From Moniliella sp. 'wahieum' (lineage: Eukaryota): a stretch of 64,000 nt of DNA. The notes under the pieces are model-generated. The model ran no database searches, was not told where the DNA came from, and saw only the letters and a list, made by a program, of their open reading frames with translations. The translations under genes were made by a program, and so were the position numbers. The number at the start of each line of letters is the position of its first letter. Position 1 is the first letter of the stretch. The stretch covers positions 1 through 64,000 of the forward strand of contig RSEE01000010.1 in assembly GCA_003971905.1 (NCBI GenBank), in the 5' to 3' direction. This document shows, piece after piece, positions 3,466 through 31,290 of the stretch.

Positions 3466-3767
3466 ATCCCTGCTGTGACAACGGCGGCTATGTATGGTGT
3501 CTAGTCTCCGTTTTTGCCTTCGAACCTGAATCCGGTGGTGTTCGTCGTCGCCAAGAACGACAAGGAGGAGGGTCGGGAGCGGCTACCCGATCGACATCAG
3601 TCATCAAATTGTCGGATCATCGATAGTTGTGAGAAGCGTGTCTAGTTGTTACTAGTATTCTTTCGTGTTCTTTACCAACCATCAATAAAGAATCTCATCT
3701 ACACTAATACTTTTGCGAAGCGTCCATTTGGATCCATGTGGATTTATCCGGATCCTTCTCAGCTTGG

Positions 3768-5072
3768 AGCTTGAAGCTTGAAGCTTGAAGCATCAGGCCT
3801 CAGGCCTCAGGCTGATCTGCATGAGTTCGGATAGACCTCTTGCTACGAGGTCGCTACTTAGCGACTAGTTACTATCATCGATCAGTTGCGCTCCCCTCTC
3901 AGCGTGACCCTGCTCAGCCAACACTATGACGATTTTAACGACAGTGGCCCTGGGATCGCCCATATACTACTACCACCAAGGCGATGCGCTCACTTGGTCC
4001 CACTCTGATCCCGCTTCTACATCGATGCTACTCAGGGGCACAGGCCAGGGCACGCAGGCTGCAGTGCCATCAGTGCCATGAGCATCGATTAACGTTTAAC
4101 GTTTAACCGCAATCGATAATCGATAATCGTTAATCGATCATCATTAATCACTGGTGGATCGCTTGACGGTTGTCATGTTGACAACTCAGACTGAGTACTG
4201 ACAACTGACAACCGACCACTGACAACCAGCAACTGGCAAACTGACAAGACATTGTCATTGGAGATCTGGCCTCCAACATGTGGCACCTTGACATGTGACA
4301 ACATGGGGCATGCCGCCTGCATTATGTACGTGCTCTGCCAAGTACACAGCAGTCGCACAGCCCCAGCGCGCTTCCTGTCTCCACGTAGCATCGCTGATGA
4401 TGATCATCGACCATCGATCATTATGATTATGCATTATGCAATACGGTTACCATTGTCTCGGGCCACTGGGTACTGGCCACCGGCCACCGGGGCTTCACCC
4501 ACGTCACGCGTCACGCGTCACTTCACGAGTGAGATTTGATATCACCCGATCACACCCCCCCCTCCCGTATCACTTGCAGCTTGAGCCTGAGGGCCTGAGT
4601 ACACTGAGTGCACCTGAGCCTGATGATCGATGATCGATGATCCTGACTCAATCCACGTGTACATACATCTGCAGATCGTTTGGACGTACCCACATCTGCC
4701 ACCGTGCACCGCCCCATCGGCCCCATCCCATCGACTCCCGCTAGTTTGGATTTGAGAATGCGTTTTCCGTTTGCGTGTTTCTGGGGTTGTATCCAGCGGA
4801 CCGCGCAGGCAAGGGCGGTGCACGGCGCGCATGTCTACCCCGACTACGGGGTTTGCCAGGGTGCGCCAGGGTGTTTTCCCTGTCCCCCGGAGCCAAGGTA
4901 CCTTAAAACGGGTACTAACATACTGAACGTCGAACGTCGAACGTACTGTGCTGAGTACGTTGTAGTACGGAGTACTAGCAAACTAAGCTGGGCAGGGCTG
5001 AGGCTCAGCCGCTCAGCGCTCAGCCCCTCAGCGCTCAGCCCGCTCAGTCTGAGTACTGCGCGCACTGAGCAC
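3768..5072. repeat. Cluster of in-phase 7-bp palindrome (xyTNAy'x') arrays
   Basis: CTTGAAG x3 CATCAGG CCTCAGG x2 (3770-3811); eight phased heptamers at 4087-4142; (TCACGCG)n 4504-4521; (TGATCGA)n 4624-4642; GCTCAGC-type array ~5000-5050. Confidence 0.9.
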
Positions 5073-7166
5073 ACTACTGTTTACTCGGTCTGAGTTTCGA
5101 TTTCTGTTATGTATGGAGATTGAGATTGAGAACTGATATCGAAGAGCGAAATACGGGGCAGAGTGTGTGGCATTGCACCAGGCATGTGCACAAGCTATGG
5201 CGCGTGACATGGACATGCACTCATATTCGCAAGGCAGCGTCACGCGTCAGAGGGCAGCCTAAATCCAATTAGTATGTTGCTTACCTCCGAGGTCGGCCGA
5301 GCGTTTGTACTTAAGTACGTGGCGTTGTGTCGGAGATTGGGAACGGTTCTTGACGTACCCACTCCTACCAAAGGGAGGATCGAGAGATGGTCGCTGGGAT
5401 CGGTCGATTATAGATGTCGGTTGGATTATAGATGTGGGCCATGATGTGCAGGATGCATGTGAACGATTGGAGCATACACATGCTTTACATACATTCAACA
5501 TGCACAAAATAAATCGTCCGCATATATATACTCGCTAAGTGCTAACCACGCCTCCTCTGATCTGTATGTATATCCCGCTCACTTGAGACTTCCTTTCCCC
5601 CACACACCCGGAGCTGAAAGAGTGATCGCTTCTAAGACAGGATCAGTCAAGTTCCAACCCAGCCCCCCCCCACCCGCCTCGTTTTGTGGCGGCAGAAATC
5701 TAATGTGCTTGAAAGCGGTTGTAGATACGGCGTGTACTCTACACCTACTCCCTTTTTCAGGACCGCAATGGCAGCGGTTTACATTTCCTCGTCTGCATCC
5801 ACACATTGACCCAAGCGCACACAGCCTCATCATGAAGATTTCACGCAGCCGCAGTACTACACGTACTGTACCTGCTGCACCACATGCATCAAAATTGTAT
5901 CTACTCTGTACCATTTGTGTGGCGCCACTTTTTTTCCCTACTGATGATGTGGCTTTCCCTCATTGATGGCAAAGCTATTGGCCAATCAACAGGTACATTG
6001 AACGAACCCAGTTGTTGAACGATGCTGAAGCGCATTTAAATCGCTGAAACGCTAATTAGGCTAGGTCATTCGTGGGCCTCGATTCGTATGAACATTCTGT
6101 AGCCTGGTAAACTCATCATCATGTGCAATAGCCATAATTTGGCATCAACGTTCAACTGCCTGCTTTTGGGCTCTACAATCGTCGCACACGCAGAAACTGT
6201 AGTGTTTTTTGCATTATCTGAGAAGCAGATAATTCTCCATGCAGTCTGCAAGGGTGTGACATCAGCACTCAATGGTTTTCACGCGGCCAGGGGCAAATAT
6301 TGAAAGCACTGAGGACTATCTCGGCGAGAAGAGTAACAAAAAAGGCACCAGAAAAGGACCGAGAAGATTAGGTCGACTTCCCTCCAATTGGTTACATGTG
6401 CATCCGCGATACTGTGAGTATCCATGTTTGGACCAATTAATAGCCAAAATGGCAAACGAGATTGTGCCCGAGACTCTCTCACCCAGGATCGATGGTGGTC
6501 GAAATTGATCACCCCCGGCTCCGCTCCCCTGTCATAGTCGGGGAACAAGGCATGGGAGATCAAGTCAGGAAAATAAGGGATGGAGAGTTGTAGCAATCGC
6601 TCATGTGGAAGCAAGTCTCGGAATCAGAGACTCACTTGATTACGCTTTGCCACCAAGTTGTCTGGCCCCTTGATTGTTCTAGACCCTGTTTTCCCCCTTT
6701 GGGTTGTGCTCCTTCTTTTCTTCCGTGTGACTTGGCTCGCATGTTCTCTTCTTCTCCGAGGCATATATATCCTCGCTCCCTTTCCACTCAATGAATATGA
6801 TCTCATCCTTCCCCCTCCCCATCTCCATCTCCTATTAAGAAGCAAGGGAGAAGACAGATAAGGAGCGCAGCCGCCAAGCTCGAGATGGAATGGATTGGGA
6901 CTGATTGTATGATAAGCGAAATCGGCCAAACCAAAAGAGAGATACTCACCCCACCCTGCGATGTATTTATCTGGGATGCTGATGCCCGTCTTCACTGTGT
7001 ATGCGTGTACGTCTTCTTATTAACACTGGTTATACCCAAACCCATGCTGAATAGAGATCTTCATTCAATCTGAGGCCCATATAGGAAGTGTGCCCCATCT
7101 TGAACAGATAGTGCCTCAAGAGGAACTCTGTATATTCCCCCTCTTTATCGTTATCTTTATAACCCA

Positions 7167-7182
7167 ACACACACACACACAC
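7167..7182. repeat. (AC)8 microsatellite
   Basis: Read directly from the sequence. Confidence 0.9.
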
Positions 7183-7539
7183 GTCACCCCAACACCTGAG
7201 GATAGTCGAGCAATCAATACTTTAGACACGCAAAATCAGCAGCGAGGTTGGGGGTGATACATGCTGGTATGACGGCTGTGCGCATATCAACGGTCCGATT
7301 CAAAAAGCAGATATACTATCAGAGGGACAAACAGAACAAACTGAACCACCCGGAACAATTTGCCTTGGGCAGGTTAGTAATGTGGTGGGTGTGGGGGCCG
7401 GAAGGATGGGGGCGGGTGAAAGCTGGACCATGAGCGATGTATGGCCGATGGCAGACATACCAGGACATACACATTGGAGGATGGGTTTTTACTGGTGGAA
7501 TCTGCATTCAAATTGTCAAACGTCAATGCCACATTCACA

Positions 7540-8260
7540 CGCAGACGCATGTGACATGTGACACGTGCAATGACACCTTCCACCTGGTCTCTGCCAACGC
7601 ATGTGGCTGTGCGACTGCTGCTGACATCTGACATGCGACAGTCCCCAGCACGTGGGTGCGCGTGACTGTGTGACGCGTCACTGGGGCAAGTGACAGCAGG
7701 ACACTCGCCTGGTCGCACCCTGTGACACTCGCCTGGTCGCACCCTGTCTCCTCTACCCTCCTCTACTCTATCTTAGCACCCGCTCGAATAATCAACGAGT
7801 CGTTCTGATTCTGAATTCCCAAGCAGGCAGGGCGCTGGTGTGGCTAGGAGGATGTCACTGGCTAGTCAGCCGCACAGAGACAGGCACCAAGCCTCAAACT
7901 TCAGAGTCAGTACTGAGTCTGAGATCTGAGTATTAGTCGCTGGTCACTCTATCTAGTTGGCGACCCAGCCTCCCACGGTCCCAACAGTCACGGTGACCGG
8001 TGACCAGTGAATATGAATACAGCACCGCTCTGCCGAGACGCCGGCATCCTCATCTGTGGCATGTCACCCTGTCACATGTCCATTACCCTCTCGAATAGCC
8101 CCATCGCCTCGTGTCATAGGTCTCACGTCACGCGTCACGCGTCACGTGTCACTTGCTCTCTTCGGTCACATGCACTGTCACATGTCACCGTGTCAACGTC
8201 ATAAAGTCACCATTTCACCACTGTGTTTGTTATGTTGAACGTTGAACGTATACGTTTTGA
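7540..8260. repeat. Cluster of 7-bp palindrome arrays
   Basis: CATGTGACATGTGACAC 7548; TCAGTACTGAGTCTGAGATCTGAG 7907-7930; TGACCGGTGACCAGTGA 7994-8010; TCACGCGTCACGCGTCACGTGTCA 8128-8151; GTTGAAC x2 ~8234. Confidence 0.85.
7700..7747. repeat. 24-bp perfect tandem duplication
   Basis: GACACTCGCCTGGTCGCACCCTGT x2. Confidence 0.9.
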
Positions 8261-9244
8261 ACGACACCAACTAACCCGTCGCGGTCGCGAGGATGCGGCC
8301 CACACGTTTGTCGTCTTCCCCCACTTTCAATTCTCCTTTGCAGCCCGCACGTGGCCGGATACAGTTAAACCGGGTCAGAGCCTGACATTATCCACAACTT
8401 TCTCAATTGTTGCTCTTTGGATCTGAACGAGACGAGAGGGCAGACCGGCCGCAATGCCGGACCCACTCGGGCATAAGAGTGGGACAAGAATTGTGTCTCC
8501 CCGATCAGATAGAGAAGCAAAAGGGCAAACGTCCGCACAGGAAGGCAATCGCTGTACCCAGAAGGCGGGAGTGGGGTGAGCTCAAGCTCATCTGCTCTCC
8601 TTCCGCGATTTAGGTTATGTCACCGGTCACCCTCACACTCCACCATGCGTCAGCCGGCCAGTCAGGTACCGCAGGGTACGGCCTCGTACCACATGTTTAG
8701 CACGAAGGACTACGTACGTTAGGGGAAGCATATAAGTTCTAACACGGTGGAGTCCAAGTGAAACGCTGAACGTACGTACATTCAACTTGCCAAGCTGCCA
8801 ACAAATGTCAGCGGGCCCTGCAGATGGGCAGTGCAGACAGCGTGCGCCACGGAGGGACACTGCCACGCTCGCTCCGCGCCGTCCTATGTATTTGGAGGGT
8901 GCGGCCATACGTCGGGGTGCGGCAGCGGGGCGGCTATTTGAGGTGCCTTTCGGTGGTGCAGTATGCATTTGAGACAGAGTGTTGCAAAAAATGCAACCTA
9001 GATACGTCGGTATCAGTGTATCAACAAAAAAGTGGTGCATGCCGCGTCTTGTGTCCGGTTGCGTGCTGCTGTGCGTCGCACAGCTACAGGATGCGTGGAC
9101 CTGTTTGACCCATTCGATGATCGACGGCGCCCAAGCGGTCCACCAGCCAGCAGGGTCGACGTTTTCGCTACGGTACCTACGGCCGAGACTGCCGACCCCT
9201 CCTCATATAATGAGTACACTGAGGACTGGTGCAGTAGTTGAGAG

Positions 9245-9480
9245 ACATTGAGCGCTCGGGCTGAGCGGCTCACAGCTCAGGCTTAGTGCCAACAGATTGA
9301 CATTGACAGACGGACCATGGCCACGGCCGCGGATAAGATGCATGATGTAGGGTGCGTGACGCGTGACCTGAGATAGTCGATAGTCGATAGACTTTAGACA
9401 ACGGACCGGAGAGACAGGCCAGAGAGCTGAAAAGGTGCTGACTGCTCCACAATCTGAGACCCTTAGGCCTCAGGCCTCAA
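9245..9480. repeat. Cluster of 7-bp palindrome arrays left of the LTR insertion
   Basis: GCGTGACGCGTGAC, GATAGTC x2, TTAGGCCTCAGGCCTCA (9463-9479). Confidence 0.8.
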
Positions 9481-9502
9481 ACAACGGTGCCAATTCCCCA
9501 GC

Positions 9503-9716
9503 TGTAAGACCAGAGGAACCAAGGGATTGGGAAGAACCTCTGGAAATGTAGAGCAATGCAATCGCGATGGTGGTGGTTCAGGTCTAAGCCTTGTGCCACA
9601 CCTAGAGACAGGGGTTCAGACAAGCCTGAGTATACACGTGGAGGCTTCGGAGGACAAATCAGGGGTGAAGGGTGATGAGGCGCCTTGGCCTAAGTACGGG
9701 ACCACGGGTCCCAACA
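9503..9716 (-). repeat. 3' LTR (214 bp)
   Basis: TGTAAGACC...GGTCCCAACA; matches the other LTR except for 3 missing bases. Confidence 0.97.
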
Positions 9717-9723
9717 CCCCCCC
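9717..9723 (-). other. Polypurine tract of the copia element
   Basis: G7 on the minus strand immediately before the 3' LTR. Confidence 0.8.
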
Positions 9724-9781
9724 GGGCCAAGGGAACGAAAGAAGCCCGTTGGCCATCAACAAAAGAAAAGTAGAAAGGGGA

Positions 9782-12700
9782 TCAGCGCGAAGAAAGAGCC
9801 AAATCGAAATTGTTACGCGCAGAAATGATCTTGGGAAGAGAAAGAGGTTTGGTGAACCAGTCAGGGAGATGGTGTGCACCTGGAGTGTAGTGGACTTTAA
9901 TTTCGCCTCGGTGGATGCGTTCCCGCACCTCGTGGTACGAGACGTCAATCTCCCGTATTTTGCCTAGGCTGCCGAGCTTTTCGGCCAACGCTTTGGCGGT
10001 GTTGTCAACAAAGAGCTCAATCGGGTGATTAGCCTTGCAGACACCAAGTTCAAACAGTATGTTGCGAATGAATAGAGCATCTCGAAGGCCATCTCCCATG
10101 GCTAGGTATTCAGATGCTGCTGTGTTGCTCACACCTTGATTTTGGGACTTGGAGCCCCAGGATACAGGCACACCGAAAACAAAAACAACATGGCCCGAAA
10201 CGGAGTGAGAGTTGCTCTTGTCTGATGCAAAGGAGGCATCGGTGTGCAGCTCGAGTAGAGGGCGAGATCGGTTGGGTGTGAGGCACAAAGAGTAGTCAGA
10301 CGTACCGGCGAAGAAACGTAATAGGTCCTCCGCTGCGCGTCGGTGGGCGGCGGACGGGTCGTCCATAAACCGCGCTAAAAAGGTAGCCGCAAAGAGGGCA
10401 TCAGGCCGGGACATACGAGCCGCCCACAAGCTGGATCCGACAATAGAACGGTAGGCACGGTGCTCGTCTCGAGTGGCACGCTTTTCGTGTTCGGGTCGCT
10501 TGGGAGGCGGAAGTTGGTGGCCGATTGGAAGGTAGCGGGGCCGGTGAGGTGATATGTCATGCGCGGCAAGCGTCTCAGCGATGAATTTGGGTTGGCTGAT
10601 GTACAGTCGTCCATCGATACGGTCGTATTGGCAGCCGAGATGGAAACGTAGGGGGCCGTTGGACTTAATTTGGATGCTGCGCCTTAATTCCACTAAGAAT
10701 TCATCATACGCTTCTTGGGACCGACACGCGACCAAAAAGTCGTCAGTGTGGACGGCGATTAGGATCAGGCCAAGAGGTTCGGTGCGACGTATGAACAGGC
10801 AAGGCTCTGATTTTAGGCTAGTGAAGTGGAGTCGGTCGCAAAGGAAAGTGCGGAGCCAATCTCCAAAGTTGGCCCCGCTCTGGTGCAGGCCATAGAGACT
10901 TTTCTTGAGTCTCCAGCAATGACCGGGCGCTTCTGGGAAGAAGGGGGGTGGTCGAACATAGACGAGCTCGTTGATATCGGCATAGAGGTAGGCAGCTTCC
11001 ACATCGGCAGAAAATAAGTGGAGGCCATCAGCTTCGGCCAACGCAATTAGCGTGTTGACGGCAGCAGTACGAACGGCAGGAGCAAAAGATTTCGCCCATG
11101 TGCCAGGAACTTGCCGGTGCCCTCCCACAACGTAGCGGGCACGGTACTTGAGGAAGTTAGCATCCGCATCCGTCTTAGTACCTATGACCCACATGCCGGG
11201 AAGGGGTTTGATCCCTGGGGGGATGGGTACAACTTCCTTCACGTCACGCTCGTCAAAACGCCGAAGCTCGAGGCGCATTGCCTCGAGTACGCCATCAAAG
11301 GCAGGGTGACCCACCAACTTCTTGATGTTCTTGGGGGCCACCGGGACCCCATCGGTGGTCAGTATGACCTCGGTGTCACTTGCCGCGGATTCGATTGCGA
11401 GTGCGATGGGGGGCGAGCTTGGCTCCGAAGCAGGTAGCATGGATGTGTCCGGCGCTGGTCCGAAAATACTCACCAAAGCCTGCATTCCTAGGGCGGAGAG
11501 GGCGGCCGGGTTGCCAAAGATGCTAGGGGCCTTGTTGACGAGCAGGGAAAAGGTGCCATCGCGCAAATTGTCGTTGGCTGGAATGGACAGGTCGAGGGGT
11601 GGAGCGTTGATACGCGCTTGGCGAACGGGATTGCGACGCACGAGTGCGGGGACGGCTGTATCGGTCAGGGGCACGGTCACGGGGGCGAGCGTGTCGGTGG
11701 GGGAGAGAGGGGAGGGGGATAGGGCGGGAGAGGAAGGGGAAGTGGAAGAGGGAGGGGAAAGCAGGACTTGGTGGCCAGTGTCAACGGCATCTTCTGTGAT
11801 AGTTTCATTTTCTTCGGCTTGCTTTGCCTGGCGTTGTGCCATGCCTGCGGGGTCAGATGCAACAGGTTGGGGGATACATGTGGGGGGTTGGAGTTGGTGG
11901 GAGTGGGGCCAGGCTCTGAATTCTCATTTTCGTTGGCTTGAGCCGGGCGATGTGCCTCTGTTTTTCGTTCTTTTAATTTTCTTTTTCCATGGGGGGCATT
12001 GTCTTTCTTACCATTAGTATCGCGGGTCAGTTCATCTATCGCAAAACGCACACGCCGGGGTGGGGAGCTGTCTGACTTCCCACCAGCACCCATTTCTCCG
12101 CCCCCCGCACCTCTCCGCCACCAGCAGGGACAAGGGGGTCCAGATGAAAGTGCGTGGGATATTCGGTGGTGTACGGGACATGTCCAGGTGGACGGCTTTT
12201 TCCAACGGAATCCAACTTGGCCGTCGTCCTGGTGGATGGCAAAGAGCCACCCCTTCGAACCGCGGGCCGTGCCCGTAACCCACCAACATTGCTGGGACGG
12301 CCCGCGGACCAAGTTTGCCGCCCTCGCGTTGGTTGGGCAATAGGTGCAGGTAGGCAAGAGTGCCAAAACCGCGCATGCGAAGGGAGGGTTTGAAGCCATG
12401 GTACCGGACAAATCGGCTGTCCCCACCCAGTGCTTTCGGCGGCGACTGGTTGTGTGCATATGTGGCCGCCAACAAGCTGTGTTCCCACCACTCGTCGGGA
12501 GTCAATCTGTTGGCGATTACCATGAGTCGAGCGCGATCCGTAATCGATCTTATGGCGCGTTCGGCGACCCCATTGGACGCACTTTCGCCAGGATTGGTGC
12601 GCTCGCTCTCTCCCAGCTCGCAGTAAAACTCGTCCATTGCGGTGGTGAGTTCAGGCGCATTGTCAGAGCGGACCGTCTGAAGGGGGCGGTCGGGATGTTG

Positions 12701-13525
12701 GCGATGCTCGCGCCGGATGAAGGCTTGAAGTTCGGCTGTGGCATCACCCTTGGACACCAGGGGTAGCGTCCAGGTATACCGCGTAAAGTCGTCGACAATG
12801 ATAAGGGCGTAAGTATGACCCCGCCGCCTTGGCGGGATATGTCAAGGACGTCGAGGTGGAGGAGAGAGAAAGGGCGAATGGTTCGGATTGGGCGTCCAGT
12901 CGTGGCGTGGGGTGGGGCAGTGGCTCTGCTTAATGCGCATGGTGCACAGTGCCACGAGGACCGGACTAAAGCGATGTCGCCACTGTTGACCCGTTCGAAT
13001 GCTGGGTCATCCGACGTGAGGGATGAAAGTTGATCTAGAGGTGCATGATTCCATCGGATGTGGGCGTTTTTCACCTTGCCAGGGTTGCATCAAGGTTGAG
13101 TAGCGAAGTGGCGCTGTTGGCTGTGGCTGTCGTATTGGGCGCCAGAGTAAGGGAATAGCTTGAGTCGGCGGCGAGACGAAAAGGTTCGCCGTGTCGTCCG
13201 AGATAGAGACCATGGCCCCTGGAGGGATCCAGCTGCCAATGCCTGCGACAGATAGATGGTAAGCGCTGAGCAGGTTGGTCGGGAAGGTGGGGCAGTACAA
13301 GCTGCCGGGTAGGTGGATGCGGATAGGGGCTCCGTTCTGGGTTTGAATGTACATAGAGATGGTGCCAATGCCTTCAGTGTATGCGATCTGTCCGTTTGCC
13401 ACTGCTATGGGCTCGCGGTGTGGACGAAGATTGATAAACGCACTTCGTTCATTGAATACGGATGGTCTCGCACCTGAATCGTGTTGCGCAGGGAGGTTGG
13501 CTGGCTTAGGGCCTCCCGCGCTGTC
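9782..13525 (-). CDS. pol: Copia pol polyprotein (protease, integrase, RT, RNase H), frameshifted in this assembly
   Basis: PR QHDSGA (~13470); integrase HIRWNH...CAPC, LHLDVLD, RSDNAPEL, SNGVAERAIRSI; RT YRARYVVGGHRQ, ADVEAAYL, LKKSLYGLHQS, HTDDFL; RNase H HTDASFA, SEYLAM, FVDN, PDWFTKPL. Confidence 0.95.
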
Positions 13526-15069
13526 CTAGTAGGGGTGAGGAGGGATTGTGGACACGACAGACTCCGTTTCAGTCGATGTGGCTGACTCGGGTGGTGTAGT
13601 GGCTGCCATAGGGGTTACTGCATGGGCAGATGAGGTGGTCTGGGCTGTCGTAGCCGGCCGGCTAAAGTGGCCGCCACGTTGGCCACCACGGTGACTTCCT
13701 CTGTACCCGCTGCCCCTCGGCCTCGTCCGCGGCCTGTCACCGTACTGCTTGTTTGGCTGTGCGACGTGGTTCCGAAGGGGCCGTACTGGAGGGAGCTGGG
13801 CTTGAACTGGAGGTACTGCCGTAGTTGGAGCCTTTGAGTTCGCTCACTGCTCGGCGCAATTCGGCGTAGCTGCTGTTACGATGGAGGTGCAACCACCCCT
13901 GATCAGTAACGCCTTTCCGTAGCATCTGTGCTAGACCAATCTCGTCCAGCTTGGACTTGGACGTCATCTCGTACTGGGTTACCGCCACAGTGAACTCATT
14001 CAGGTATTGGCGGCCCTTGGTGCCCATTTTGAGAGTGAGAACCTTTATGAGGATATCACAGATCTCAGTGTCTGAAACGGTGCCGTACAAATCACGCAGA
14101 GCATGATAGTATGCAGACCCTAGAGCCCGTGCCATCGCCGGTGATCTGCTGGACGACGTCGGAGTCTATCCACGGGAGTAGAATGTTGGCCAAGTGAGCG
14201 TCCAGTTCAGCGTTATACCCGTCCAGGGCCTTGCCCTGTTCCAGATGCTCACGCGCTCCAGGGATAATCTGGATACGAGGGAGGAAGATCCGGGTCCATA
14301 ACCAAAACGAGCTGTTGTTGTGGAAACGCTCGTGGTACGGCACGTTGGTGCGAGTGGCACTACGGAGGAGCTTGTCGGGAGTCAAAGCCCACGGGTTGTC
14401 GTCGACGGCCGGAGTTGACGATGAGGGACCTTCGTTCTTGCTAGCATTGGGTGGATTCTCACATGATAACATGACAATGGCTTCTGTGGTCGTCTTTTCG
14501 CTGTACCCAAGCTTGATACCAGTGTCCTGTAGCTGTTTGAGGGTGATGTGTTCGGGAAACAATTTGAACATGTTGCGAATGCGGTCGGCGAGGGTGGCGA
14601 CGTCGTTCGCGGTGTTGTCGGGGCCCACGGGGGTGGGTTGAGGTGTAGGGGTAGATTCACGCGATGGTGTCAGCGGCGGGGAGGCGTGGTCAACTCCGAC
14701 GGGAGTGGTGCTCTCTTCTGCGGCGGCAGTTGGTGAAGTAGGGGTTGAGGAGTTGAACCAAGACTCCTGAGTCTGAGAGCTCATGATGCTTGCCATTAGC
14801 TTACGCAGTTCGAGCAAGCGCTTGTGGATAGGGCCGGCAGCGGAGGCATCGTTGCGGTAGCGGAGTAGTAACTTGGTGAGGGAGTCCATGTGGTTGTTGC
14901 ACACGGTGAGCTGGGCCATGTATTCGGAGTTCGGATCTCTCTGGGTGGGAGTGGCATTGCGAAGCAGAATGTTGTAGACTTGCTGGTAATCCGACAGCAG
15001 TTGGGCGGCAGCGTCGGCGTTGGGCGCTGCTGCGCCCACAGGGGGGAGGTAGGTGTTGACCCAAGACAT
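13526..15069 (-). CDS. gag: Copia gag protein (frameshifted), ending at an in-frame UAG
   Basis: ORFs 14092-15069 and 13737-14135 plus an RGG-rich and S/T-rich tail ending ...IPPHPY-UAG at 13526-13528. It lies directly after the 5' LTR. Confidence 0.8.
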
Positions 15070-15146
15070 GGGTGGGTGGAAGATTGGAAGAGTGGAAGAG
15101 TGTAAGAGTGGAAGGCTCAGGGCTGAGCGTCAAGAGGATGTAACTC

Positions 15147-15363
15147 TGTAAGACCAGAGGAACCCAAGGGATTGGGTGAAGAACCTCTGGAAATGTAGAG
15201 CAATGCAATCGCGATGGTGGTGGTTCAGGTCTAAGCCTTGTGCCACACCTAGAGACAGGGGTTCAGACAAGCCTGAGTATACACGTGGAGGCTTCGGAGG
15301 ACAAATCAGGGGTGAAGGGTGATGAGGCGCCTTGGCCTAAGTACGGGACCACGGGTCCCAACA
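15147..15363 (-). repeat. 5' LTR (217 bp)
   Basis: TGTAAGACC...GGTCCCAACA followed by TSD CCAGC. Confidence 0.97.
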
Positions 15364-15369
15364 CCAGCA

Positions 15370-16350
15370 TTAGAAGTACTGAGCTCCCGGCCGGAGTGAG
15401 CGCCTGAGAAGCCGAGCGGCTGAGCCTCAGCGCCTCAGCCGGCCTCCAGCTTCAAGCGCGTTTAACGAGTGCAACGGCAAACGAACATCATTGAATTCAA
15501 CGTTCAACGTTCAAACGTTCAACGTTCAATGTCCAACGTTCATTATTTCCATTCTTTTTCATCCAATGCCCAACGTGTGGGTTGTGTTTGTATTATTGGG
15601 GTGAGCCGGTGACGGGACTGATCAATTGACGTATGATATGAACGTCGAACTTCAGCTGAAAACGCTGAACGCTGAACGTCGAACGTTGAAACGCTTAATT
15701 CGACGGAGTTGCGTTATATCGAGGACAGAGCGCCTGCCCGTCCTGCTCCACAATCCAGCTGCGGCTATGACCAGTGTGCTGGGCGCAAAAAGCCCTGCCA
15801 GGAGCTATCATTACTTGTTACTTGCATTACTATCGCCTACTATTGCTCGTTGCTGTAGCTGCATGTATCACTCTAATTCACTTGAAGCTCCTGAAAGCTT
15901 ACAGTTTCAAGTCCAAACGCCAACGAAGGCAGGCACTCAGCCTTTACCGGGGCGGGCAAAAATGCATTCTGCTGATCGGTGGGTTCAGACTATTGCTCCG
16001 CCCGCGGTCGGTACCCAAATACTCAGCCTGTGCTCAGCCTGAGCGCTCAGGCTCAGCACTCGGCCGTGGTTGATCGTAAGGCTGGACGTTTGTGGTCTGA
16101 GATCTGAGGTGTCGAGGTGCCCGAACAGGGTCGTCAGGGTATTGTTGTCAGGTGTCGTCAGCACGTCAACTGTCGTCTCTCGCAGCGTGACTTGTGAGGT
16201 GTGAAACGGCGCAGCTTGAAGCTTGAAGCATGATGCATGATTCATGATGCATGATGTGGCAGGACGCCGGTTTCACAAGAGGCACATGTCACATGATGCA
16301 TGATGCATGACACATGACACATGTCACATGTCACAGCGCCATGTCAGTAC
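15370..16350. repeat. Cluster of 7-bp palindrome arrays right of the LTR insertion
   Basis: (GTTCAAC)n ~15497-15542; GCTGAAC/GTCGAAC/GTTGAA ~15664-15690; CTTGAAG x2 CATGATG CATGATT CATGATG x2 (16215-16256); TGTCACA and CATGATG arrays 16285-16335. Confidence 0.9.
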
Positions 16351-17060
16351 TGAGTCTGAGTATACGTACGGGTACGCAACGCATGGCCCATGGTGCATGG
16401 CCTCCCATCCACCATGGCCCCCAGGTGCATGGGGCATAGCATGCGTTGCATAGCCCCCGTAGCCCATGTTGTCACGAGCGCTAGTCACCTAGTCACCGTG
16501 CCAGTGCATTGGTCACTTGCCATGGTCCCCAGGCGTGAGCGCGTGACATATGACGGGAAGGCGGATGCGAAGGGGCGGTGGGAGTGGGAGTGGCGAGGCG
16601 TCGGCAGGCAGGCGTGGCGCTCGCGCTGGGCGCTGAGGCGCTGAGGGCTGAGGCCCGAGGGCGTGAGGGCCAAAAGGGGCTTCCGTGGTACTGGCTGGCA
16701 AATAGGATGAAACCAAACAAGGCTGAAACAGAGGGTGCGTGTGGGTCAGGAGCCAGCCTGCCCAGACCGAACCCTCCCACACCACTGTGGTTGGGCCCCG
16801 GTGGAACCCTGCCGCGTGCCGGGGCGGCGGGACGGGGCGGAGGTGGCGTGGGGCGCGGGGGCAGGCAGCCGGGCGCAGGGGCGCGCGTGTGCTGTGCGTG
16901 GCGCGGTGCGCTGTGCGCTGGCCAACGCCCAACGTTCTCCTCCAGCGCCCAACGCCTGCCTGTCTGGCACTGAGACACGGAGCTGTGCAGACAGGCAATT
17001 TGCAAGTGGCTCGCCTGAAACTCTGCCGACAAATTTGCAGCACCCACAGCACCTCCGCCT

Positions 17061-17066
17061 TATATA
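17061..17066 (+). promoter_or_regulatory. Putative TATA box of the homeobox gene
   Basis: TATATA in a GC-rich context, followed by a pyrimidine-rich leader. Confidence 0.4.
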
Positions 17067-17436
17067 CCCGCGCCCGCCGCCTCCGTCGCTCGTCTTCCTC
17101 TGTGCCTCGCCTCGCCCTGCCTCGTCTTGCCTCCCCCCCCCCCCCCCACCCATCCTCTTGCGCTGGACGCGGACCGCAGACCCTCTGCTGCCCGCACTAC
17201 CGCCCCGTCGGTTGCTGCCGTGCCCCTCGCTCGCTCCTATGCCTTCTGTGGTTTCCCGTGCACCCGTGCGTTGTCTCCCCTCCTGTCTGCGCTGCCCCCT
17301 CCACCCACCCGCCTCGCTAACCTCGTCTCCCCCTCCCCATTTCGCCCGACCCTAGGCCTGCCCCGCATCCCTCCCCGTCTATTGTCCGCGCCGCCTGTCC
17401 AAGTCGCGCACCCGCCTCCCATCTCTCGTGCGGGTC

Positions 17437-18919
17437 ATGCCAGCTCCCAAAGACACATCCAAACGCCCCTCCGCCCTGGCCTGTCAGCACACTTGCTTCT
17501 CTGCCTCGTCCCCCCCCCCTCGCGCCCCCGGGTCCACGGGGCTGCCTCTGTCCGAATCGCCCGTAGCCATCTCCCAGGCTGCGCCGGGAGATTTCCACGA
17601 GACCAGTTCCAGTGAGCCGGCCTCGCGCGAGCGCAAGCCCAACGCCTTCCTGGTATCTCCTACATTGACCAGTTTCTTGCCCTCCAACTACTTCGCCAGG
17701 CGTCCCTCGCAGCCTGAGGGTTATCCCTCGCAGCATGAGGGTTACAGCCCTACGCTCAGCCTCTTCGGCGCTAGAGCGGAGACCGCTACCCGCCACCGCC
17801 TTTACTCACTCTGCCTGAGCCAGATCTGATCGGCCGCCCTTCTTGCCCTCCTTTGCTGGCGGCAGCAGTGAAGCTCGACACTCTCTTCCAATCTGCCGTT
17901 CCACAGTACCTCATCCCCTCTTTGCCTCCACCTTCGGCCTACCCCCACACCTCTTCTCCCGAAACAAGCTGCAGCCATCCGTACCAGCAGCCGAGCCATC
18001 TCCCCGTCATGCCACGTTTCCAGTGGCGATTGGACGTACCGGTCTACGCGCCCTCGCCTGTTAACGGTTAGCCCCGCTCATGCCTGCGACGACTAAAACG
18101 CGGTACTATCCTGCGCCTGGTTACGATGGGGCCGCAGGTGCTGGCCCAGGTGCAGGTTCAGGCCGTATCCACCCGCTTGGTTCCCGCTACGAGCCACGCC
18201 GGTCATCTGAGACCGGCTACGGGTCACGCGGGTCGATGCGCGGCGTATACGCCTACGGCCTGCAGGCTATTCGTCCGAGGCGGCCTACCCCCCCATCCCG
18301 CCGGAGCAGGCTGTGTATCCCGATGGTCAGGGACCTACGCCCAGCTACCGCGGCCATTCTTCCTCCCCAGTTCGCTGGCTGGACCTTACGCTGTAGGTGC
18401 GGAGATGGGCGCGGGTACCGGCATGGCCACGGGGAGGGGGCAGTTCAAGTGCCAGCTCGGCCCGACATCACCCCTACCTCCGTCAGCGCCCGTTCCCCCC
18501 CAGTCCACGAAGACGGAGCGACCACGTTGCATCGGGAGCACGTGTGGTGGACGATGCAGGGTTGCCGGTGCACCATTGGCCAACGAGGGTAGCGCCCCTA
18601 TTGGTCCGGCTCAACCACCTCGCCTTCACCCTTACCTGTTGGGGGAGCGAACGGATCCCACCCATCGCAGGCGGGAGGACCCGGACGGGCGCCTCCGCCG
18701 TCCAAGCGACGGGGCAAGTTGCCCAAGGAAGTGACCGAGTACCTCCGTACGTGGCTCTTGGACCATGTTGACCACCCCTACCCGACCGAGGAGGAGAAAC
18801 GTCATCTGTGCGACTCGACGGGCTTGTCGATGAACCAAATCTCCAATTGGTTTATCAATGCGCGGAGACGCATCCTTACGCCCATTGAACCTTCTAGCTC
18901 GTCGGTTGAGCAGTCGTGA
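17437..18919 (+). CDS. TALE-class homeodomain transcription factor (Cup9/Tos8/TGIF-like); start and exon structure uncertain
   Basis: KRRGK/LPKEVTEYLRTWLLDHVDHPYPTEEEKRHLCDSTGLSMNQISNWFINARRRIL, with the PYP loop and WFxNARRR at 18719-18919; P/S/Y-rich N-terminal region with frameshifts. Confidence 0.88.
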
Positions 18920-19997
18920 AGCTGGGTGTGCTGGCAAGGCATCAACAGCGGGACGAGGCACAGAGGATTGGGTCCCGTGGAACCGCGTCCCACTTCTGAA
19001 CCTGCCTGGTGCAGGGATGAAAGAAGATGGAGGCATGGGGTAAGCGCGCTGACGAGAGTTCGCACCGTGCGTATGGCGCGTTCCCTTAGCCCACACCAGG
19101 CTTGGCTATCAAGGCGCTGTGTGTGCGACCCTTCAGCCCTTGCAGTCTCGTCGGCCGCTCCACTCCCCCTAATATGGCTAAGGCATACTCGATGTGCGCC
19201 TTTTCTCTTTTTGTAAATTCTTCCTTCTCTTTCTCCCTCACCATTCTGCCGCTTATGTTTGTTGGATGGGGAGGGGAGTATGTGCTCCAGCTTTTGCTCC
19301 CGATCGCTTTGTCGTTCTTCCTGCGTTACCGTACCTCTCTTAATCCGCTTCTGTCCTGTCGTTACGCGTTGCACTATCTCTGTTGGTTGGCTTGCACTTT
19401 TCCCCTCTTTTCATCCCTTCAGTTCTGCATCCCCCCCCCCAAAGCTTTGTACCATGTACCCGTCTCTTTTACTTCATGCTCATCCTCCCCACCTCTTATG
19501 GTTTCCTCGGGCAAGTATCTTAGCCATTCGTAATTTGTATCTAGTAGGCCGAGCGCGTACTTATTATCTGTCTGTCATCTATTATCGTACTTGACGGAGA
19601 CACATTGTTCCTCGACCTCATTCGCTCTCGGAGGTCTTCATTTCCGACTTAGATCCTCTTGACCAATACAGTGCAGGGTCAATGAGAGGTTGGCCAGGGT
19701 GCGTCATGCGTCATGCTGCATGAATCTTGACTGTTTCCTGGGTGAGATGGGGCTTTTGGTGGTTACCCCCTTTTAGCGGCGTTATTACTATATACCGGCT
19801 ACCTTCCCGAGTGTGCCGCTTTTCGTGCCTGCTATTATTGTGTGCTTGCAGAACGCGCGTAGGACCAAGTTGGTGAAGCACTGCGAGCGCTGAGTAGATT
19901 TGTGTTGGGTAGGCGGCCGGGGGTTGCGTGCTGCATGTGCAGCACACTCTCTTTCTCTTTGCGAATTTGCTGGAGAGAGTCCATATTGAAGAACGGC

Positions 19998-20106
19998 TGT
20001 CACATGTCACACGTCACACGTCACATGTCCTGTCACTCACATGTCACTCACGTGTCACTGATTAGACATCCGCGGTGTTGCTCGATAGCGTAATCACCGA
20101 TCACCG
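19998..20106. repeat. TGTCACA/CGTCACA heptamer array
   Basis: TGTCACA TGTCACA CGTCACA CGTCACA ... TGTCACT. Confidence 0.85.
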
Positions 20107-22638: not shown

Positions 22639-22698
22639 GGCTGTTTGTTCTGAGGCTGTTTGTTCTGAGGCTGTTTGTTCCGAGGCTGTTTGTTCTGA
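22639..22698. repeat. 15-bp minisatellite x4
   Basis: GGCTGTTTGTTCTGA x4 (one copy ...TTCCGA). Confidence 0.92.
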
Positions 22699-24126: not shown

Positions 24127-25278
24127 ATGGGCTGCCTCCCCGTGCGTCCCTCGTCACTGCCTGCTGAGTTCGTCGCTGCCCCCGCTGACCCCCCCCCCCC
24201 CTCTCAGTCCTCACTCGATGTCCATGCAGCCGAGGCCCAAGCGCACAGCGATGCAAGAGATGCCCACCTCAGGCAACACTCCCCCGCCGAGCGCCCCGCC
24301 ATCAAGATCCTCTTGCTTGGCAGCGGCGACAGCGGCAAGTCCACCCTCGTCAGTCAGATCCGCCTCATCCATCGTGGGCCCTTTAGTCTGCACGAACGTC
24401 AGCTGTACAAAGAAGTCATCTTTTCGAACACTGTCCAGAGCATGGTGGCCATCGTGGATGCGATGCGGGCCCTCAACATCTCCCCTGCCACACCCCATGC
24501 CATCCGTGCTGCCGAATTCGTTTCCAGTATCAGCAAACGGATCGAGGCGCCTATTCTTCCGACCGGTATGGCGCAGGCCATCGCTGTCCTCTGGTCCGAC
24601 CCTGGGGTACAAGCCACCATTAGTCGCTCACGCGAGTTCCACCTAAGTGACTCGGCGCCGTATTACTTTGACGCTATTGGCCGCATCGGGGCAGAGGGAT
24701 ATATTCCGACGGACCAAGACGTGCTCCGCTCTCGTGTACAAACCACCGGGATCATGGAGGAGACGTTCAATCGACAATACCACGTACCGCATTGTCGACG
24801 TGGGTGGACAGCGATCCGAGCGGCGCAAGTGGATCCACTGCTTCGAAGCTGTCTCTGCCCTCTTCTTCCTTGCCGCCCTGTCGGAGTACGACCAAGCGCT
24901 GTACGAGGACGTCAAAGTGAACCGGATGCAAGAAGCCTTGACGCTCTTTGGGGCGATCTGCAACTCCCGCTGGCTGGAGCACTTCATCATCCTCTTCCTC
25001 AACAAACCGATCTGTTTCGGGCCAAGTTGCCCGTCGCACCCCCCAACGCTACTTTGACGACTATGTGCCGCTCCCAGTGTGGCGGTCTCGTCCGATGCCT
25101 CCTTCACTCATGCTTGCAACTTTTTCGCCACCAAATTCACCGCTCTGAATCGGTACGAAAACAGGACGATCCACACCTATTACACCTGCGCCACCGACAC
25201 CAACCAAATCACCCTGTGTTTCAATCGGTGCGAGATAGCATTACACGGGCCAGTTTGCAGCAAGTGGGTCTGCTTTGA
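24127..25278 (+). CDS. Heterotrimeric G-protein alpha subunit (frameshifted in assembly)
   Basis: N-terminal MGC; KILLLGSGDSGKST; DVLRSRVQTTGI; DVGGQRSERRKWIHCF; FLNK; TCATDT; C-terminal QVGLL*. Confidence 0.95.
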   Translation: MGCLPVRPSSLPAEFVAAPADPPPPSQSSLDVHAAEAQAHSDARDAHLRQHSPAERPAIKILLLGSGDSGKSTLVSQIRLIHRGPFSLHERQLYKEVIFSNTVQSMVAIVDAMRALNISPATPHAIRAAEFVSSISKRIEAPILPTGMAQAIAVLWSDPGVQATISRSREFHLSDSAPYYFDAIGRIGAEGYIPTDQDVLRSRVQTTGIMEETFNRQYHVPHCRRGWTAIRAAQVDPLLRSCLCPLLPCRPVGVRPSAVRGRQSEPDARSLDALWGDLQLPLAGALHHPLPQQTDLFRAKLPVAPPNATLTTMCRSQCGGLVRCLLHSCLQLFRHQIHRSESVRKQDDPHLLHLRHRHQPNHPVFQSVRDSITRASLQQVGLL

Positions 25279-26099: not shown

Positions 26100-29080
26100 C
26101 ATGAGTAGAATGCACAAAGAGGCGCTAGGAAGAGGGACTCGCCTGTACAGGAACAACAAAATGCCGCGGGCATTGACCACATGAAAGAAAAAAAGTCCAT
26201 GATGTCAAAGACGAGAGTAACAGCGTGATGATTGCGTCGTGGGGGATGTTAACGCGATGACAAAGGCCTACGGAGAGAAGAAGATAGAGGGAGGAGGTGA
26301 TGGATCTATTCCAAAAGAGGAGCCCGTTAGGGGCAGAACATAGGGGAGAGTCGGATAGAACAGCGCGATGCGTGATGCGTGATCAGCTGCATGCATGATG
26401 ACGCTGACAGGGGAGAATGTGAGGGGCCTGTGCTGCAACCAGGAGAGGTGTGGGTGTCTAGTCGAGTTCAAAGAGGTTGGGAACGAGGTTCCGGATAACA
26501 GCTCGAACTTCATCAGATAAAATCTCCCTTTCTTGTTGAGATGTTGACGCTTGATATGCCGCCGGAGTTCATACTTGTGGTAAAACTTGCAAGCACAGTA
26601 TGAAACTGGGCACACCTGGCTACGAGAACGTCTTGGTCCGTGGACATCACGGATATGAGCATTTCTGTTGGATGCCCGCGTAAATGTCTGCGGACACTTA
26701 GTGCATGTGACGCGACCGCCGTGAGACTTCTTGGATTGAGACCGTTTCGGTTTCTTGCGGCCAGGCTTCTTTGTCGCCCCCGGGCCGGAGGGACTCGTGT
26801 CGATACCCGGTGATGACGGTTGAGTGAGGCCAAGGTCACCTTCTGATGTGGCAGATGTCGTAGTAGAGTCGTACCCAACGGTTTCAGCCAAACTATAGGA
26901 AGGGTCATGGCCATGCGGCCAAGAGGGCAGAAGCGGAGCTGGTGCCACTAGATCTCCATGTGCGGCATGTCCTGATCTAATGTCACCTTTAGGTTCAGCC
27001 TCTTCGGGATGGTGCTCGATCCCAGTGGGGGCAATGTTGCCTTGCAAACTGGTGTCGACGTTCAGACAGCCAATGAGCAATCCAATACCGACGGCGGGGA
27101 GGGTGGCACCTCAGGGGTAGCGGCATTGTGACTTGCGATCTACTCAAGGTCCGGCCATCCCAAAAAGGAAAATTTGAATATGCTTTGCTCTCCCAGAGGG
27201 TTCTGGGTGCTCTGCAAAGATGGGTTGAACGATTGAACCATCAAATTGCTAGTGGAAGCGTCACTTGGAGGCAACAGCGGTTGGGCCGAGATTGTAGCAC
27301 TGAACGGAACCGTTTCGGCAGCCATCTGGTTCAGAGGCGGTAACGTTCGATCGGTTGAATCATCATGAGACCCGAAGTGATGTCAACGTCAGCGTAGGTT
27401 CCGGGGATGTTGCTAATAGTAGTAGCGGCCATGGTTCCGATGGAGGAGGTTGCGTTGAAGTCGAATGGCCTCTCATTTGGTGGTGGGGGAGAATGGGTTA
27501 ATTATATATGGCGTTGCGGTCGGAGGTAGGTGTTTTGAAGTGTCTACTATAGATTGACATGTGACACGAGGGTATAACAATAATGAAGAGGCAGCGCTGT
27601 ACGAAAAGATAGAATCTATGCACCATGATGCGCTGCCAATGCTATCCAGCTTTCCCCTAATGTCAGGCACAATGTGTGGCGCTACGGTTTGACGCCTCAC
27701 GAGGAACAGTAGAGAGCAAAGCATCTTGTAAAGATCATCGATCACACTCCTGTCCGATGCCAAGCCCTCTTCTTCCGTGGGAAGAGGGGTGACCGTCGAA
27801 TAAGGGCAGGAGAGAGAAATAATTTGAAATGTTCTCCCCCCCGCGGATTTAATGGCCATCTCATCGCCCTCTCAACACGCCCCTTATTCGAAACATCTCC
27901 CCTTCTTCTCTACGCATCGCACACTTGACACTAAGTGCGGCTCCCAAATATAGGCTGTTTTTCACTGCCTAGATCTACACAACCTACTATGATGCACATG
28001 TGACATGCACGTCATTGCCGTCTTCAAACCTTCTTGAACGCTCGTCTTGCTTTCCACTATAGTTTCACTAGTGTTGGTGTACGATGCATGATGCTTGATG
28101 GGGACAGTACGCCAAACTCCGGATCTGTCTATCAACACAGACTGTAGTAGTTTTGACTTTGTCGTATACTACAACTGTTGGGACACGTTTCAGAGGGCGC
28201 GTTTTGCCTTTTCCGATAGTGTCACACGGCCTTCCTCTTTTTGATGAGTGTGGTATTGTGCCTCAGCGCCCTCTGTTCGGTTACCATATAGATGCTTGCC
28301 TTCATCCAGTCAGCGGCGCGACTTTGTTGTTAGAGCACTGTATTCAGCCTCTCTCTCAGTCCTCTCTTCGGTATTGCGCACATGGCCTTCTCATTCAGGT
28401 CGACTGCGCGAAAATGACGTCTGTGGCTTGCCAATAAGGTATGCATCTTAAGCGTGAGTCCTCTTTTCCGGGCGTCCACGACTCAGTAGTGATTTTTTTC
28501 TGTCACCTACTAAGCAATACGTTCTAACCCCGCATTCACACTATTAAACTCTCTGTAATTGGTACATCGCCCATACTTGTAATTGGTATACATCGCTCAT
28601 ACTCGTGTCTCTTCTGTCTGTCGCATGTATTACGCGCTTTTCTGCCATAGCGGCAACCCCTTTCTCTCTCTTTGTCCTTCAACCGGAGAAAGGGAACGTC
28701 GTCGCTCCCCCTATAGACCCCCCCCCCCTTAATTTGTGCTCTATTTTCTTCCAACCTGAATGTATAGGATGTATAGGGAAAAAAGAGAGGAGATGGTGAT
28801 GACCCGTAATAGGTTTTACTATATTCCTATTCCCTTTCGGTACCGTCCGAATCAGAGGACACGTTGTGGGTACAAAGTCGGTAGACCCTCCGCGGCTAAT
28901 GCATTCATGCAGTTGTGTGTCGGCCAGCAATCGTTCATCATTCTGGCCCGTCGGCTGCGATCAGGTTGAGCAGGCCATGCGGATATAAACAGTTAGTACT
29001 TCTGTCCCATTTCACTATACTACACTAATCACTGCGGTATAACCATATGCAACGCACCTGTCGACCACCACTCGCCTACT
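26100..29080. repeat. Segmental duplication copy A (paired with ~30190-33100)
   Basis: Shared blocks: TGTGTGGCGCTAC...GAGCAAAGCATCTTGTAAA (27674/31598), CTTCATCCAGTCAGC (28300/32294), GGAACGTCGTCGCTC (~28692/32670), GGCTAATG.ATTCATG (28893/32871). Ends approximate. Confidence 0.8.
26458..27432 (-). CDS. Two-finger C2H2 zinc-finger protein, paralog A
   Basis: CTKCPQTFTRASNRNAHIRDVH and CPVSYCACKFYHKYELRRHIKRQH; after a frameshift, EREILSDEVRAVIRNLVPNLFELD*. TATA-like element at ~27502-27508. Start uncertain. Confidence 0.75.
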
Positions 29081-30960: not shown

Positions 30961-31178
30961 GGTTCGGAAGCGTGTTGATGTCAATGACACTGCAGGTACC
31001 ATAGGCGATGCTTTTTAGTGTACTGTAGATGCAGTCCCGGTTGTGGTGCGATGGAGGAGGTTTTACCTTGAAGCGGAGTGACTGGAGTGACATCCCAACC
31101 CGTTTCAGGGGAGAAAGGGCCACTTTTTATTAAAAGGCGCTGGCCGCTGCAGAGGTGGATGGGTATGTTGAGTTGGGT

Positions 31179-31290
31179 GGCTCGTGCTTTGGCCAATGTC
31201 CCTTCAGTTCCTCCTCAGGCCTAGGAGTTCCGCTGTTTTCCCTCTCCTGTTTTCCCCCTGTCCCGCAGCTTAGCCCCTGAGCGCGACTCG
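31179..31290. repeat. Direct repeat of 35179-35283 (offset 4000 bp)
   Basis: GGCTCG.GCTTTGGCCAATGT..CCTTCAGTTCCTCCTCAGGCCT.GGAGTTCCG is present in both copies. Confidence 0.85.

Follow-up and report, generated by a model that had tools for sequence, protein, structure and literature searches.

The locus and its heptamer arrays

The 64,000 nucleotides (nt) of Moniliella sp. 'wahieum' contig RSEE01000010.1 analysed here (the window, to which all counts refer unless another scope is stated) contain, in their non-coding DNA, tandem arrays of heptamers that are odd palindromes centred on T-N-A. Their unit can be written xy-TNA-y'x', where x and y are the arm bases, x' and y' are their complements and N is any base. 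The window is GC-rich (50–68% GC across 2-kb bins) and its genes are of eukaryotic, fungal type, as judged from a Pfam scan of open reading frame (ORF) translations, which identified the first exon of a G-protein alpha subunit (24127–24768), a C2H2 zinc-finger gene, a dihydrouridine synthase, a Knl1-like protein, a HECT ubiquitin ligase, the ribosomal proteins S5 and L26 and a leucyl-tRNA ligase, the type of the last being confirmed by a protein atlas look-up. A Ty1/copia long terminal repeat (LTR) retrotransposon with RVT_2, rve, Pol_BBD and SH3_retrovirus domains occupies positions ~9503–15363 on the minus strand. Its LTRs of ~215 bp have TG...CA ends and are 98.6% identical across 220 aligned columns, with three gap positions, and the element is bracketed by a 5-bp duplication, CCAGC, at 9498–9502 and 15364–15368. 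This insertion, itself free of seven-base events, divides one long non-coding stretch (~3600–9500 and 15366–17000) that harbours most of the arrays first noticed in an earlier inspection of the DNA, referred to below as the sequence-only reading.

The TNA-centred palindromic arrays of period 7 described in that reading are real. Dozens of period-7 arrays were returned by Tandem Repeats Finder within 3768–20106 and at the other sites it had named. An exact count gave 38 perfect runs of period 7 that have a primitive unit and reach 15 nt or more, compared with a mean of 1.55 and a maximum of 4 in 40 block-wise dinucleotide shuffles; the corresponding observed counts and shuffle means were 36 and 17 for period 5, 7 and 0.38 for period 8, and 4 and 0.08 for period 9. 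Twenty-one of the 38 units become an odd palindrome on rotation (0.2 in shuffles), in every case with T and A on either side of the centre. All of the units listed in the sequence-only reading are present (CTTGAAG, CCTCAGG, GTTTAAC, GATAATC, CGTCACG, GATGATC, TGTGACA/TGTCACA, TCTGAGA, GGTGACC, GTTCAAC, CATGATG and GCTCAGC), as are its 12 junction tetramers. The additional sites that it proposed also exist, although those at ~26365 and ~45845 turned out to be arrays of the non-palindromic heptamer GCGTGAT and that at 32751 a period-8 variant.

To the left of the copia element, the arrays begin with CTTGAAG units (arms CT) at 3770–3790, within a perfect run of 24 nt (3768–3791), followed by CCTCAGG (arms CC, 3793–3811), GTTTAAC (arms GT, 4089–4107), GATAATC (arms GA, 4115–4128, with degenerate copies as far as 4149), CGTCACG (arms CG, 4502–4520) and three full copies of GATGATC (arms GA, 4622–4642). 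A mixed period-7/8 array of GCTCAGC units spans 5003–5047, three full copies of CGTCACG lie at 8126–8146, and two-copy arrays are formed by TGTGACA (7550–7563), GGTGACC (7992–8005) and GTTGAAC (8234–8247). To the right of the element, two adjacent GTTCAAC arrays (15497–15513 and 15517–15528, together 15497–15528) are linked by a period-8 step at 15506–15522, and a CTTGAAG array (16215–16228) is followed by CATGATG arrays (16229–16240 and 16243–16256), the whole covering 16215–16256. Further along the contig, CATCATG forms a two-copy array at 31539–31552 and a longer one at 32953–32971.

A uniform copying rule

The minimal structure underlying these arrays is a 12-mer, xyTNA + y'x' + xyTNA, in which five bases are repeated directly and the two bases between the copies are the reverse complement of the first two; the bases 3' of the second copy are unrelated. 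Such 5+2+5 structures are found on either strand. The 12-mers number 73, compared with 0.5 in shuffles, and group into 43 arrays. When 5+2+5 structures were counted irrespective of sequence, 124 were found, 73 of them with T-N-A at positions 3–5; the remainder are mostly phase-shifted readings of the same arrays. No other X-N-Y centre gave more than 12 hits with the same geometry. The process is thus T-N-A-specific, as the sequence-only reading had supposed, and its contention that symmetry and period rather than sequence are conserved is borne out by a geometry shared across 12 arm dinucleotides.

Besides the arrays, the rule is displayed by single events dispersed along the window. In the left part these comprise GGTGA+cc+GGTGA (1320–1331), an event with TG arms in its minus-strand form TGTCA+ca+TGTCA (4289–4300), one with CA arms and a TAA/TTA centre (4427–4438), TCTGA+ga+TCTGA (7918–7929), TGTCA+ca+TGTCA (8176–8187), CGTGA+cg+CGTGA (9355–9366) and CCTCA+gg+CCTCA (9468–9479). 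Others were located at 31401–31412 (arms CC), 43491–43502 (arms GA), 43865–43876 (CATCA+tg+CATCA) and 58623–58634, the last with a CATGATG unit and lying upstream of the ribosomal protein L26 exon. Isolated events, in which the repeat does not extend into the flanks, are CGTCA+cg+CGTCA (5238–5249), a minus form GTTGA+ac+GTTGA with GT arms (6145–6156), an event with GG arms (8620–8631), TCTGA+ga+TCTGA (16096–16107), an event with TG arms (27555–27566), GATCA+tc+GATCA (27733–27744), GATTA+tc+GATTA (31996–32007), an event with AG arms and a CTAG junction (43603–43614) and GATAA+tc+GATAA (51718–51729). Isolated runs of the 5+2 class with TNA at offset 2 number nine, compared with 0.1 in shuffles, and those at sites where y' is the next base number eight, compared with 0.2. 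A 4+3 construction occurs at chance level (six of 197 runs); both T and A must therefore have been present in the original site.

The sequence-only reading had regarded each event as a 7-bp duplication of a symmetric site, and this is not upheld by the junctions. Of 58 decamers of the form TNA-(4-bp palindrome)-TNA with the same N, 52 have a half-tetramer identical to the dinucleotide that flanks it: 21 match both flanks, 17 only the left one and 14 only the right one, and the other six match neither. The match is thus one-sided in 31 of the 52. Single-copy xyTNAy'x' heptamers are barely enriched (91, compared with 71 ± 9.5 in shuffles). Because the half-tetramer matches the flank, often on one side only, and single heptamers show hardly any excess, the palindrome is a product of the event and not a site that already existed and was duplicated. 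Pre-existing palindromic heptamers are ruled out as targets by the same count of single copies, and the end nucleotides of a transposon are ruled out as the source of the tetramer by the 52 of 58 that match their own flank. The centre N is copied directly: only six decamers have a complementary N, which would make a perfect 10-bp palindrome, compared with the 58 that have the same N, and TNA pairs spaced by 7 nt in a proxy for non-coding DNA have the same N in 102 cases and a complementary N in 19.

These observations bear directly on the enzymatic causes that had been put forward. A plain 7-bp target-site duplication (TSD), or the fill-in of a 7-nt stagger, would yield xyTNAzw twice, which is not the main product, and a footprint composed of transposon end nucleotides is excluded by the flank-derived tetramer; fold-back or hairpin chemistry, which that reading had also listed, stays viable. 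They bear equally on ordinary microsatellite slippage, or plain 7-bp duplication (TSD or fill-in), of chance palindromic units, which is very improbable as the origin of the arrays. Founder 12-mers, in which the second copy gives way to unrelated bases and 31 matches are one-sided, cannot be created by slippage; the scarcity of excess single-copy palindromic heptamers, the far lower frequency of periods 8 and 9 and the occurrence of palindromic TNA units in 21 of 38 arrays, where 0.2 would be expected, also argue against it. As a sole cause, slippage or plain duplication is contradicted by the one-sided flank matches and by the isolated 5+2 events. As the sequence-only reading had maintained, neither slippage nor a single transcription-factor motif is able to make the founder events.

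The geometry is also rigid. In a scan anchored on TNA, all combinations of inverted lengths from 0 to 5 and of 0 to 2 extra direct bases were evaluated. Apart from the 5+2 class, two inverted and six direct bases were found six times (0.1 in shuffles), and this rare 6+2 form corresponds to the period-8 variants CCTGAG+gg+CCTGAG (4585–4599), AGTCAC+ct+AGTCAC (16481–16497), GCTGAG+gc+GCTGAG (16629–16646) and TGTGAC+ca+TGTGAC (32751–32765); the five clearest examples of period 8 have a repeated y' as their extra base. The mixed array at 5003–5047 combines both periods, with canonical 12-mers at 5011–5024 and 5028–5039. One inverted base with six direct bases, for which the period is also 7, gave 18 hits (0.4 in shuffles), which we read as the same palindromic arrays in another phase. 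Apart from this re-reading, inverted lengths of 0, 1, 3, 4 and 5 anchored on TNA are not enriched. Nor is TNATNA (52, compared with 42.4 in shuffles), and nothing above the shuffles was found for +3, +5, +9 or +11 products, for xyTNA-y'x'-TNA, for bases like the palindromic (P) nucleotides of hairpin opening on both sides, for two tetramers between the TNAs, or for a spacer copied from, or an inverted part derived from, the other flank. A uniform product without ragged by-products fits a structurally constrained reaction better than ragged end joining.

Target preferences, location and growth of the arrays

The arms of the 43 arrays use 12 dinucleotides and always include at least one G or C. 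AT-only arms, the counterpart of the four AT-only tetramers that the sequence-only reading had not seen, occur in none of them (9.0 expected, P = 4.5e-5), and arms with one G/C are as common as arms with two. All ten arrays with A or T as x have G or C as y, and 21 of the 33 with G or C as x have A or T as y (Fisher P = 5e-4). A minimal stem of 2 bp would impose just such a need for at least one G/C. The centre N is G or C in 38 of 43 arrays, compared with 74% of background sites. Flank statistics were derived from the 31 arrays with an open right end. In 16 of these the base 3' of A is y' (P = 0.0013), and the base following it is x' in only four; a G precedes x in 16 (P = 0.0026) and a C lies three bases 3' of A in 12 (P = 0.10). 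Within the bounds of this small sample, these preferences hint at a symmetric recognition site of ~9 bp.

The arrays are unevenly distributed. Their density reaches 3.7 per kb at 3601–9530 and 4.9 per kb at 15366–17000, is zero in the copia element and lies between zero and ~1 per kb in the gene-dense right half of the window. Pfam-backed ORF stretches (13.1 kb, containing 405 of 2387 TNA sites) have none of the 43 arrays, compared with 7.3 expected (P = 3e-4). This avoidance of coding DNA, together with the occurrence of both perfect and point-mutated copies and a flank-dependent rule that matches no sequencing error mode known to us, makes an assembly or base-calling artefact the least probable of the explanations considered.

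The position of the arrays in gene-flanking DNA and the TGA or TCA centre of 38 of the 43 would suit selected cis-elements, either clusters of binding sites for a dimeric factor or period-7 stop codons in all three frames. Against such selection stand the 12 different arm pairs, the absence of TAG except in one GATAGTC array, and the isolated one-off events, which follow the same copy rule. That rule ties each insertion to its own flank, as selection for a motif would not. We regard functional motifs as very improbable.

Around one fifth of 3700–5250 lies within period-7 arrays, as summed from Tandem Repeats Finder rows, and eroded arrays adjoin perfect ones. The degenerate array at 4179–4247 contains a canonical ACTGA+gt+ACTGA at 4190–4201, followed by plain ACTGACA repeats; the compound array at 16283–16335 is composed of CATGATG (16292–16310), non-palindromic CATGACA (16306–16323) and TGTCACA (16322–16335) units; and a degenerate array of GTCAC type at 19998–20059 retains a canonical TGTCACA pair at 19998–20011. 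Since perfect arrays lie beside eroded ones, the insertion process is old and is probably continuing. The word CTGAGTA(C) recurs between the arrays in 3600–9500, for example near 4190, 4596, 4950, 5050, 7905 and 9211, which suggests that much of this stretch is built from decayed heptamer units.

Ten palindromic arrays reach at least 19 nt. With 43 founders among 2216 oriented NNTNA sites, ~2.5 arrays should have been hit a second time in phase if such hits were independent, compared with the ten seen (P = 3e-4). Either a new palindromic heptamer is a preferred target, which agrees with the y' preference, or slippage adds copies. Something like slippage does appear to lengthen existing arrays. 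The 47 perfect runs of at least 14 nt comprise 26 palindromic and 21 non-palindromic runs, and 11 of the latter contain TNA. Some of these non-palindromic TNA runs look, as we read their sequences, like CGTSACG units decayed at CpG, and the run at 4197–4212 is a plain ACTGACA repeat adjoining a canonical event. The non-palindromic heptamer GCGTGAT is present in approximately three copies at each of two distant loci, 26363–26383 and 45846–45866, which could have arisen from a CpG-decayed CGTGACG array that was then copied.

A few tandem repeats lie outside the heptamer rule. A 24-bp unit is perfectly repeated twice at 7700–7747 (100% match), and a 15-bp unit, GGCTGTTTGTTCTGA, is present four times at 22639–22698 (95%). 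Diverged 87-nt direct repeats and arrays with periods of 12, 24 and 36 bp are contained in long GC-rich ORFs without Pfam matches at 40366–41499 and 41872–43205; these probably represent a repetitive, low-complexity protein-coding gene.

Possible origins of the insertions

Taken together, the data call for an agent that recognises T-N-A, an asymmetric lesion fixed two bases 5' of the T, and pairing of xy with y'x'. In the reading that we favour, to which we assign a probability of about 0.4, the arrays are mutation scars rather than functional motifs, left by a TNA-specific, strand-asymmetric cut repaired through a 7-nt mini-hairpin. A putative T-N-A-recognising enzyme, probably a transposase-type nuclease, would nick one strand two bases 5' of the T at NN-TNA, and strand-displacement repair synthesis would re-copy the five bases xyTNA. 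The new 3' end, the nearly self-complementary TNA, would then switch onto the displaced old strand and copy its last two bases backwards, adding y'x' before running off. The resulting 7-nt tail, xyTNAy'x', could fold back as a mini-hairpin, its stem 2 bp long and its loop formed by TNA, and ligation of this hairpin into the strand would give exactly +7, xyTNA-y'x'-xyTNA. Each event would create new copies of the target, so that further hits and later slippage would extend in-phase arrays, and selection would purge coding DNA of the insertions. The sequence itself shows the 5+2 rule, its restriction to TNA, its uniformity, the need for G/C in the arms and the avoidance of coding DNA; where the strand is cut, that the template is switched, that a hairpin is formed and what kind of enzyme acts are inferences. 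Such a mechanism accounts for a uniform product that needs G/C in the arms, arises equally on both strands and comes without any element. With slightly more reserve, we propose that the enzyme may be host-encoded, possibly a domesticated transposase, and may continually write 7-nt hairpin insertions without the passage of a transposon.

This mechanism borrows its topology and its template-switching palindromic 3' flap from the model published for small inverted triplications in rad27 yeast, in which such a flap changes template and then returns (PMC13334657). Breaks are also documented to acquire short fold-back insertions (PMC11724301). Like the 12-mers described here (xyT, N, Ay'x', xyT), the triplications and fold-back insertions of rad27/FEN1 and replication protein A (RPA) mutants have a direct-inverted-direct order, but they are of ~148/160/148 bp or 5–34 bp, variable and without a tie to a trinucleotide, whereas the insertions in the window are of fixed size (3-nt arms, counting the T/A pair, and 7 nt in total) and strictly bound to TNA.

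This likeness opens the way to a purely replicative error without a dedicated nuclease, namely a template switch of the quasi-palindrome kind or a miniature inverted triplication, arising at stalled forks or at the ends of Okazaki fragments and favoured where the nascent end is the near-palindrome TNA. Such an error would accommodate the direct-inverted-direct topology and arms that must include a G or C, a mobile element is unnecessary, and template-switch models have been published for rad27 and RPA mutants. Random nicks, however, should give a range of inverted lengths, of which only two is seen; the self-complementary centres ANT, CNG and GNC are unused; and the published events, of 5–34 bp or ~150 bp, lack site specificity. 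We therefore consider an origin in replication alone to be unlikely.

Several points also weigh against the nick-and-hairpin mechanism. To our knowledge, there is no nuclease of such TNA specificity, and no TNA-specific nuclease was found in the window. Self-complementarity of the 3' end alone would predict the use of ANT, CNG and GNC centres, which gave one, two and one hits, respectively, so that the specificity falls entirely to the hypothetical enzyme. A loop of 4 nt would be required for the 6+2 variant, which is a poor fit to the TNA-pairing step; the 11 non-palindromic TNA-containing heptamer arrays require slippage or a second outcome; and the flank preferences are based on 31 arrays only. 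Moreover, a TSD combined with P nucleotides classically has the same signature, a duplication of fixed length beside a few palindromic bases.

That signature is the starting point of the main rival, in which the arrays are the scars of a cut-and-paste transposon that inserts at NNTNA with a 5-bp (rarely 6-bp) TSD and whose later excision through flank hairpins leaves both TSD copies and, on one flank, two P nucleotides, giving +7, arrays being built by repeated insertion and excision at the duplicated target. In the excision footprints of hAT elements and MULEs, and in V(D)J coding joints, P nucleotides derive from flank hairpins. Like the arrays, the footprints of DDE transposons that form such hairpins (hAT, Transib and MULE) and V(D)J joints combine a direct repeat of fixed length with the reverse complement of the flank, and in the window the direct repeat is indeed fixed at five bases (rarely six), with two added nt that exactly reverse-complement the flank beside them. 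The T-N-A specificity and the hints of a symmetric extended target resemble the target choice of a transposase, with precedents in the 5-bp duplications of Transib at symmetric sites such as cCASTGg (PMC1131882) and in the 3-bp duplication and extended 9-bp preference reported for plant PIF/Harbinger elements (PMC2836001). As portrayed there, PIF/Harbinger elements share with the sites described here T-N-A-centred targets and hints of a symmetric extended preference.

The differences are nevertheless considerable. The product in the window is near-uniform (5+2, rarely 6+2), and there is no enrichment of the +3, +9, +11 and other products to be expected if hairpins were opened variably and their ends joined. 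Without exception, the P-like bases derive from the xy side rather than the TNA side, an asymmetry that would be unexpected with two equivalent transposon ends; NN-TNA is not centred on the 5-bp repeat, and hairpin nicking does not predict at least one G/C in the arms. PIF/Harbinger, known for TNA duplications, duplicates 3 bp rather than 5 bp and excises precisely, in 109 of 110 events of a yeast assay, according to the same study (PMC2836001), and no transposase of this kind was found in the window. Transib targets are symmetric, and its fungal range was narrow in the 2005 survey, being limited to soybean rust (PMC1131882).

The sequence-only reading had suggested looking for elements with terminal inverted repeats (TIRs) flanked by fitting duplications, and none was found within the 64-kb window. 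A search for 10-nt perfect inverted termini 40–8000 bp apart yielded 95 candidates, of which the five with a 5-, 7-, 8- or 9-bp or TNA duplication were array sequences or chance pairs. Likewise, a Pfam scan of 20 + 144 ORF translations revealed no DNA-transposase domain (DDE, hAT, RAG/Transib, MULE or PIF), but only retrotransposon domains and host genes. The lack of a TIR element or DNA transposase in 64 kb, despite ~3.7–4.9 arrays per kb in the two densest non-coding stretches, weighs against transposon scars, which we rate somewhat less probable than the nick-and-hairpin mechanism that we favour.

Before/after pairs were sought by comparing the window with itself using BLAST, which returned only the copia LTR pair and three short diverged repeats. 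None of the three gap positions between the LTRs is of the 7-nt type, and a 7-nt indel between 31140–31330 and 35140–35320 does not follow the 5+2 rule. Short dispersed non-coding repeats pair 31175–31290 with 35175–35283 (~81% identity) and 27673–27737 with 31598–31658 (~83%); they could be what is left of an unclassified element, or pieces of promoter held in common. A metagenome scan with the G-protein alpha exon returned one contig of 1.7 kb with 34% identity, from which no orthologous comparison is possible. In the literature searched, the coverage of which excludes most subscription journals, no description of TNA-anchored 5+2 insertions or of fungal palindromic heptamer arrays was found. 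The 'palindromic microsatellites' of Fusarium mitochondria have an (A)n-spacer-(T)n structure and are unrelated. We place the events with templated, hairpin-type insertion scars, of which they would be a variant, but they may quite possibly represent a new kind of site-specific mutational process.

Should this be the case, one stereotyped reaction would be a major source of new non-coding sequence in this genome, producing short palindromic repeats beside genes at several events per kb. It would amount to a self-amplifying, site-specific mutational process that manufactures palindromic heptamer repeats and accounts for a sizeable share of the intergenic DNA. Its signature would be precise enough for events to be counted, dated and assigned to an enzyme, the constant 5+2 outcome and the requirement that at least one arm base be G or C being concrete biochemical predictions, and the birth of microsatellite-like arrays from unique sequence would become directly testable. 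The finding would indicate either a highly active DNA transposon that has so far escaped notice or a new fungal nuclease with sequence specificity and its repair pathway.

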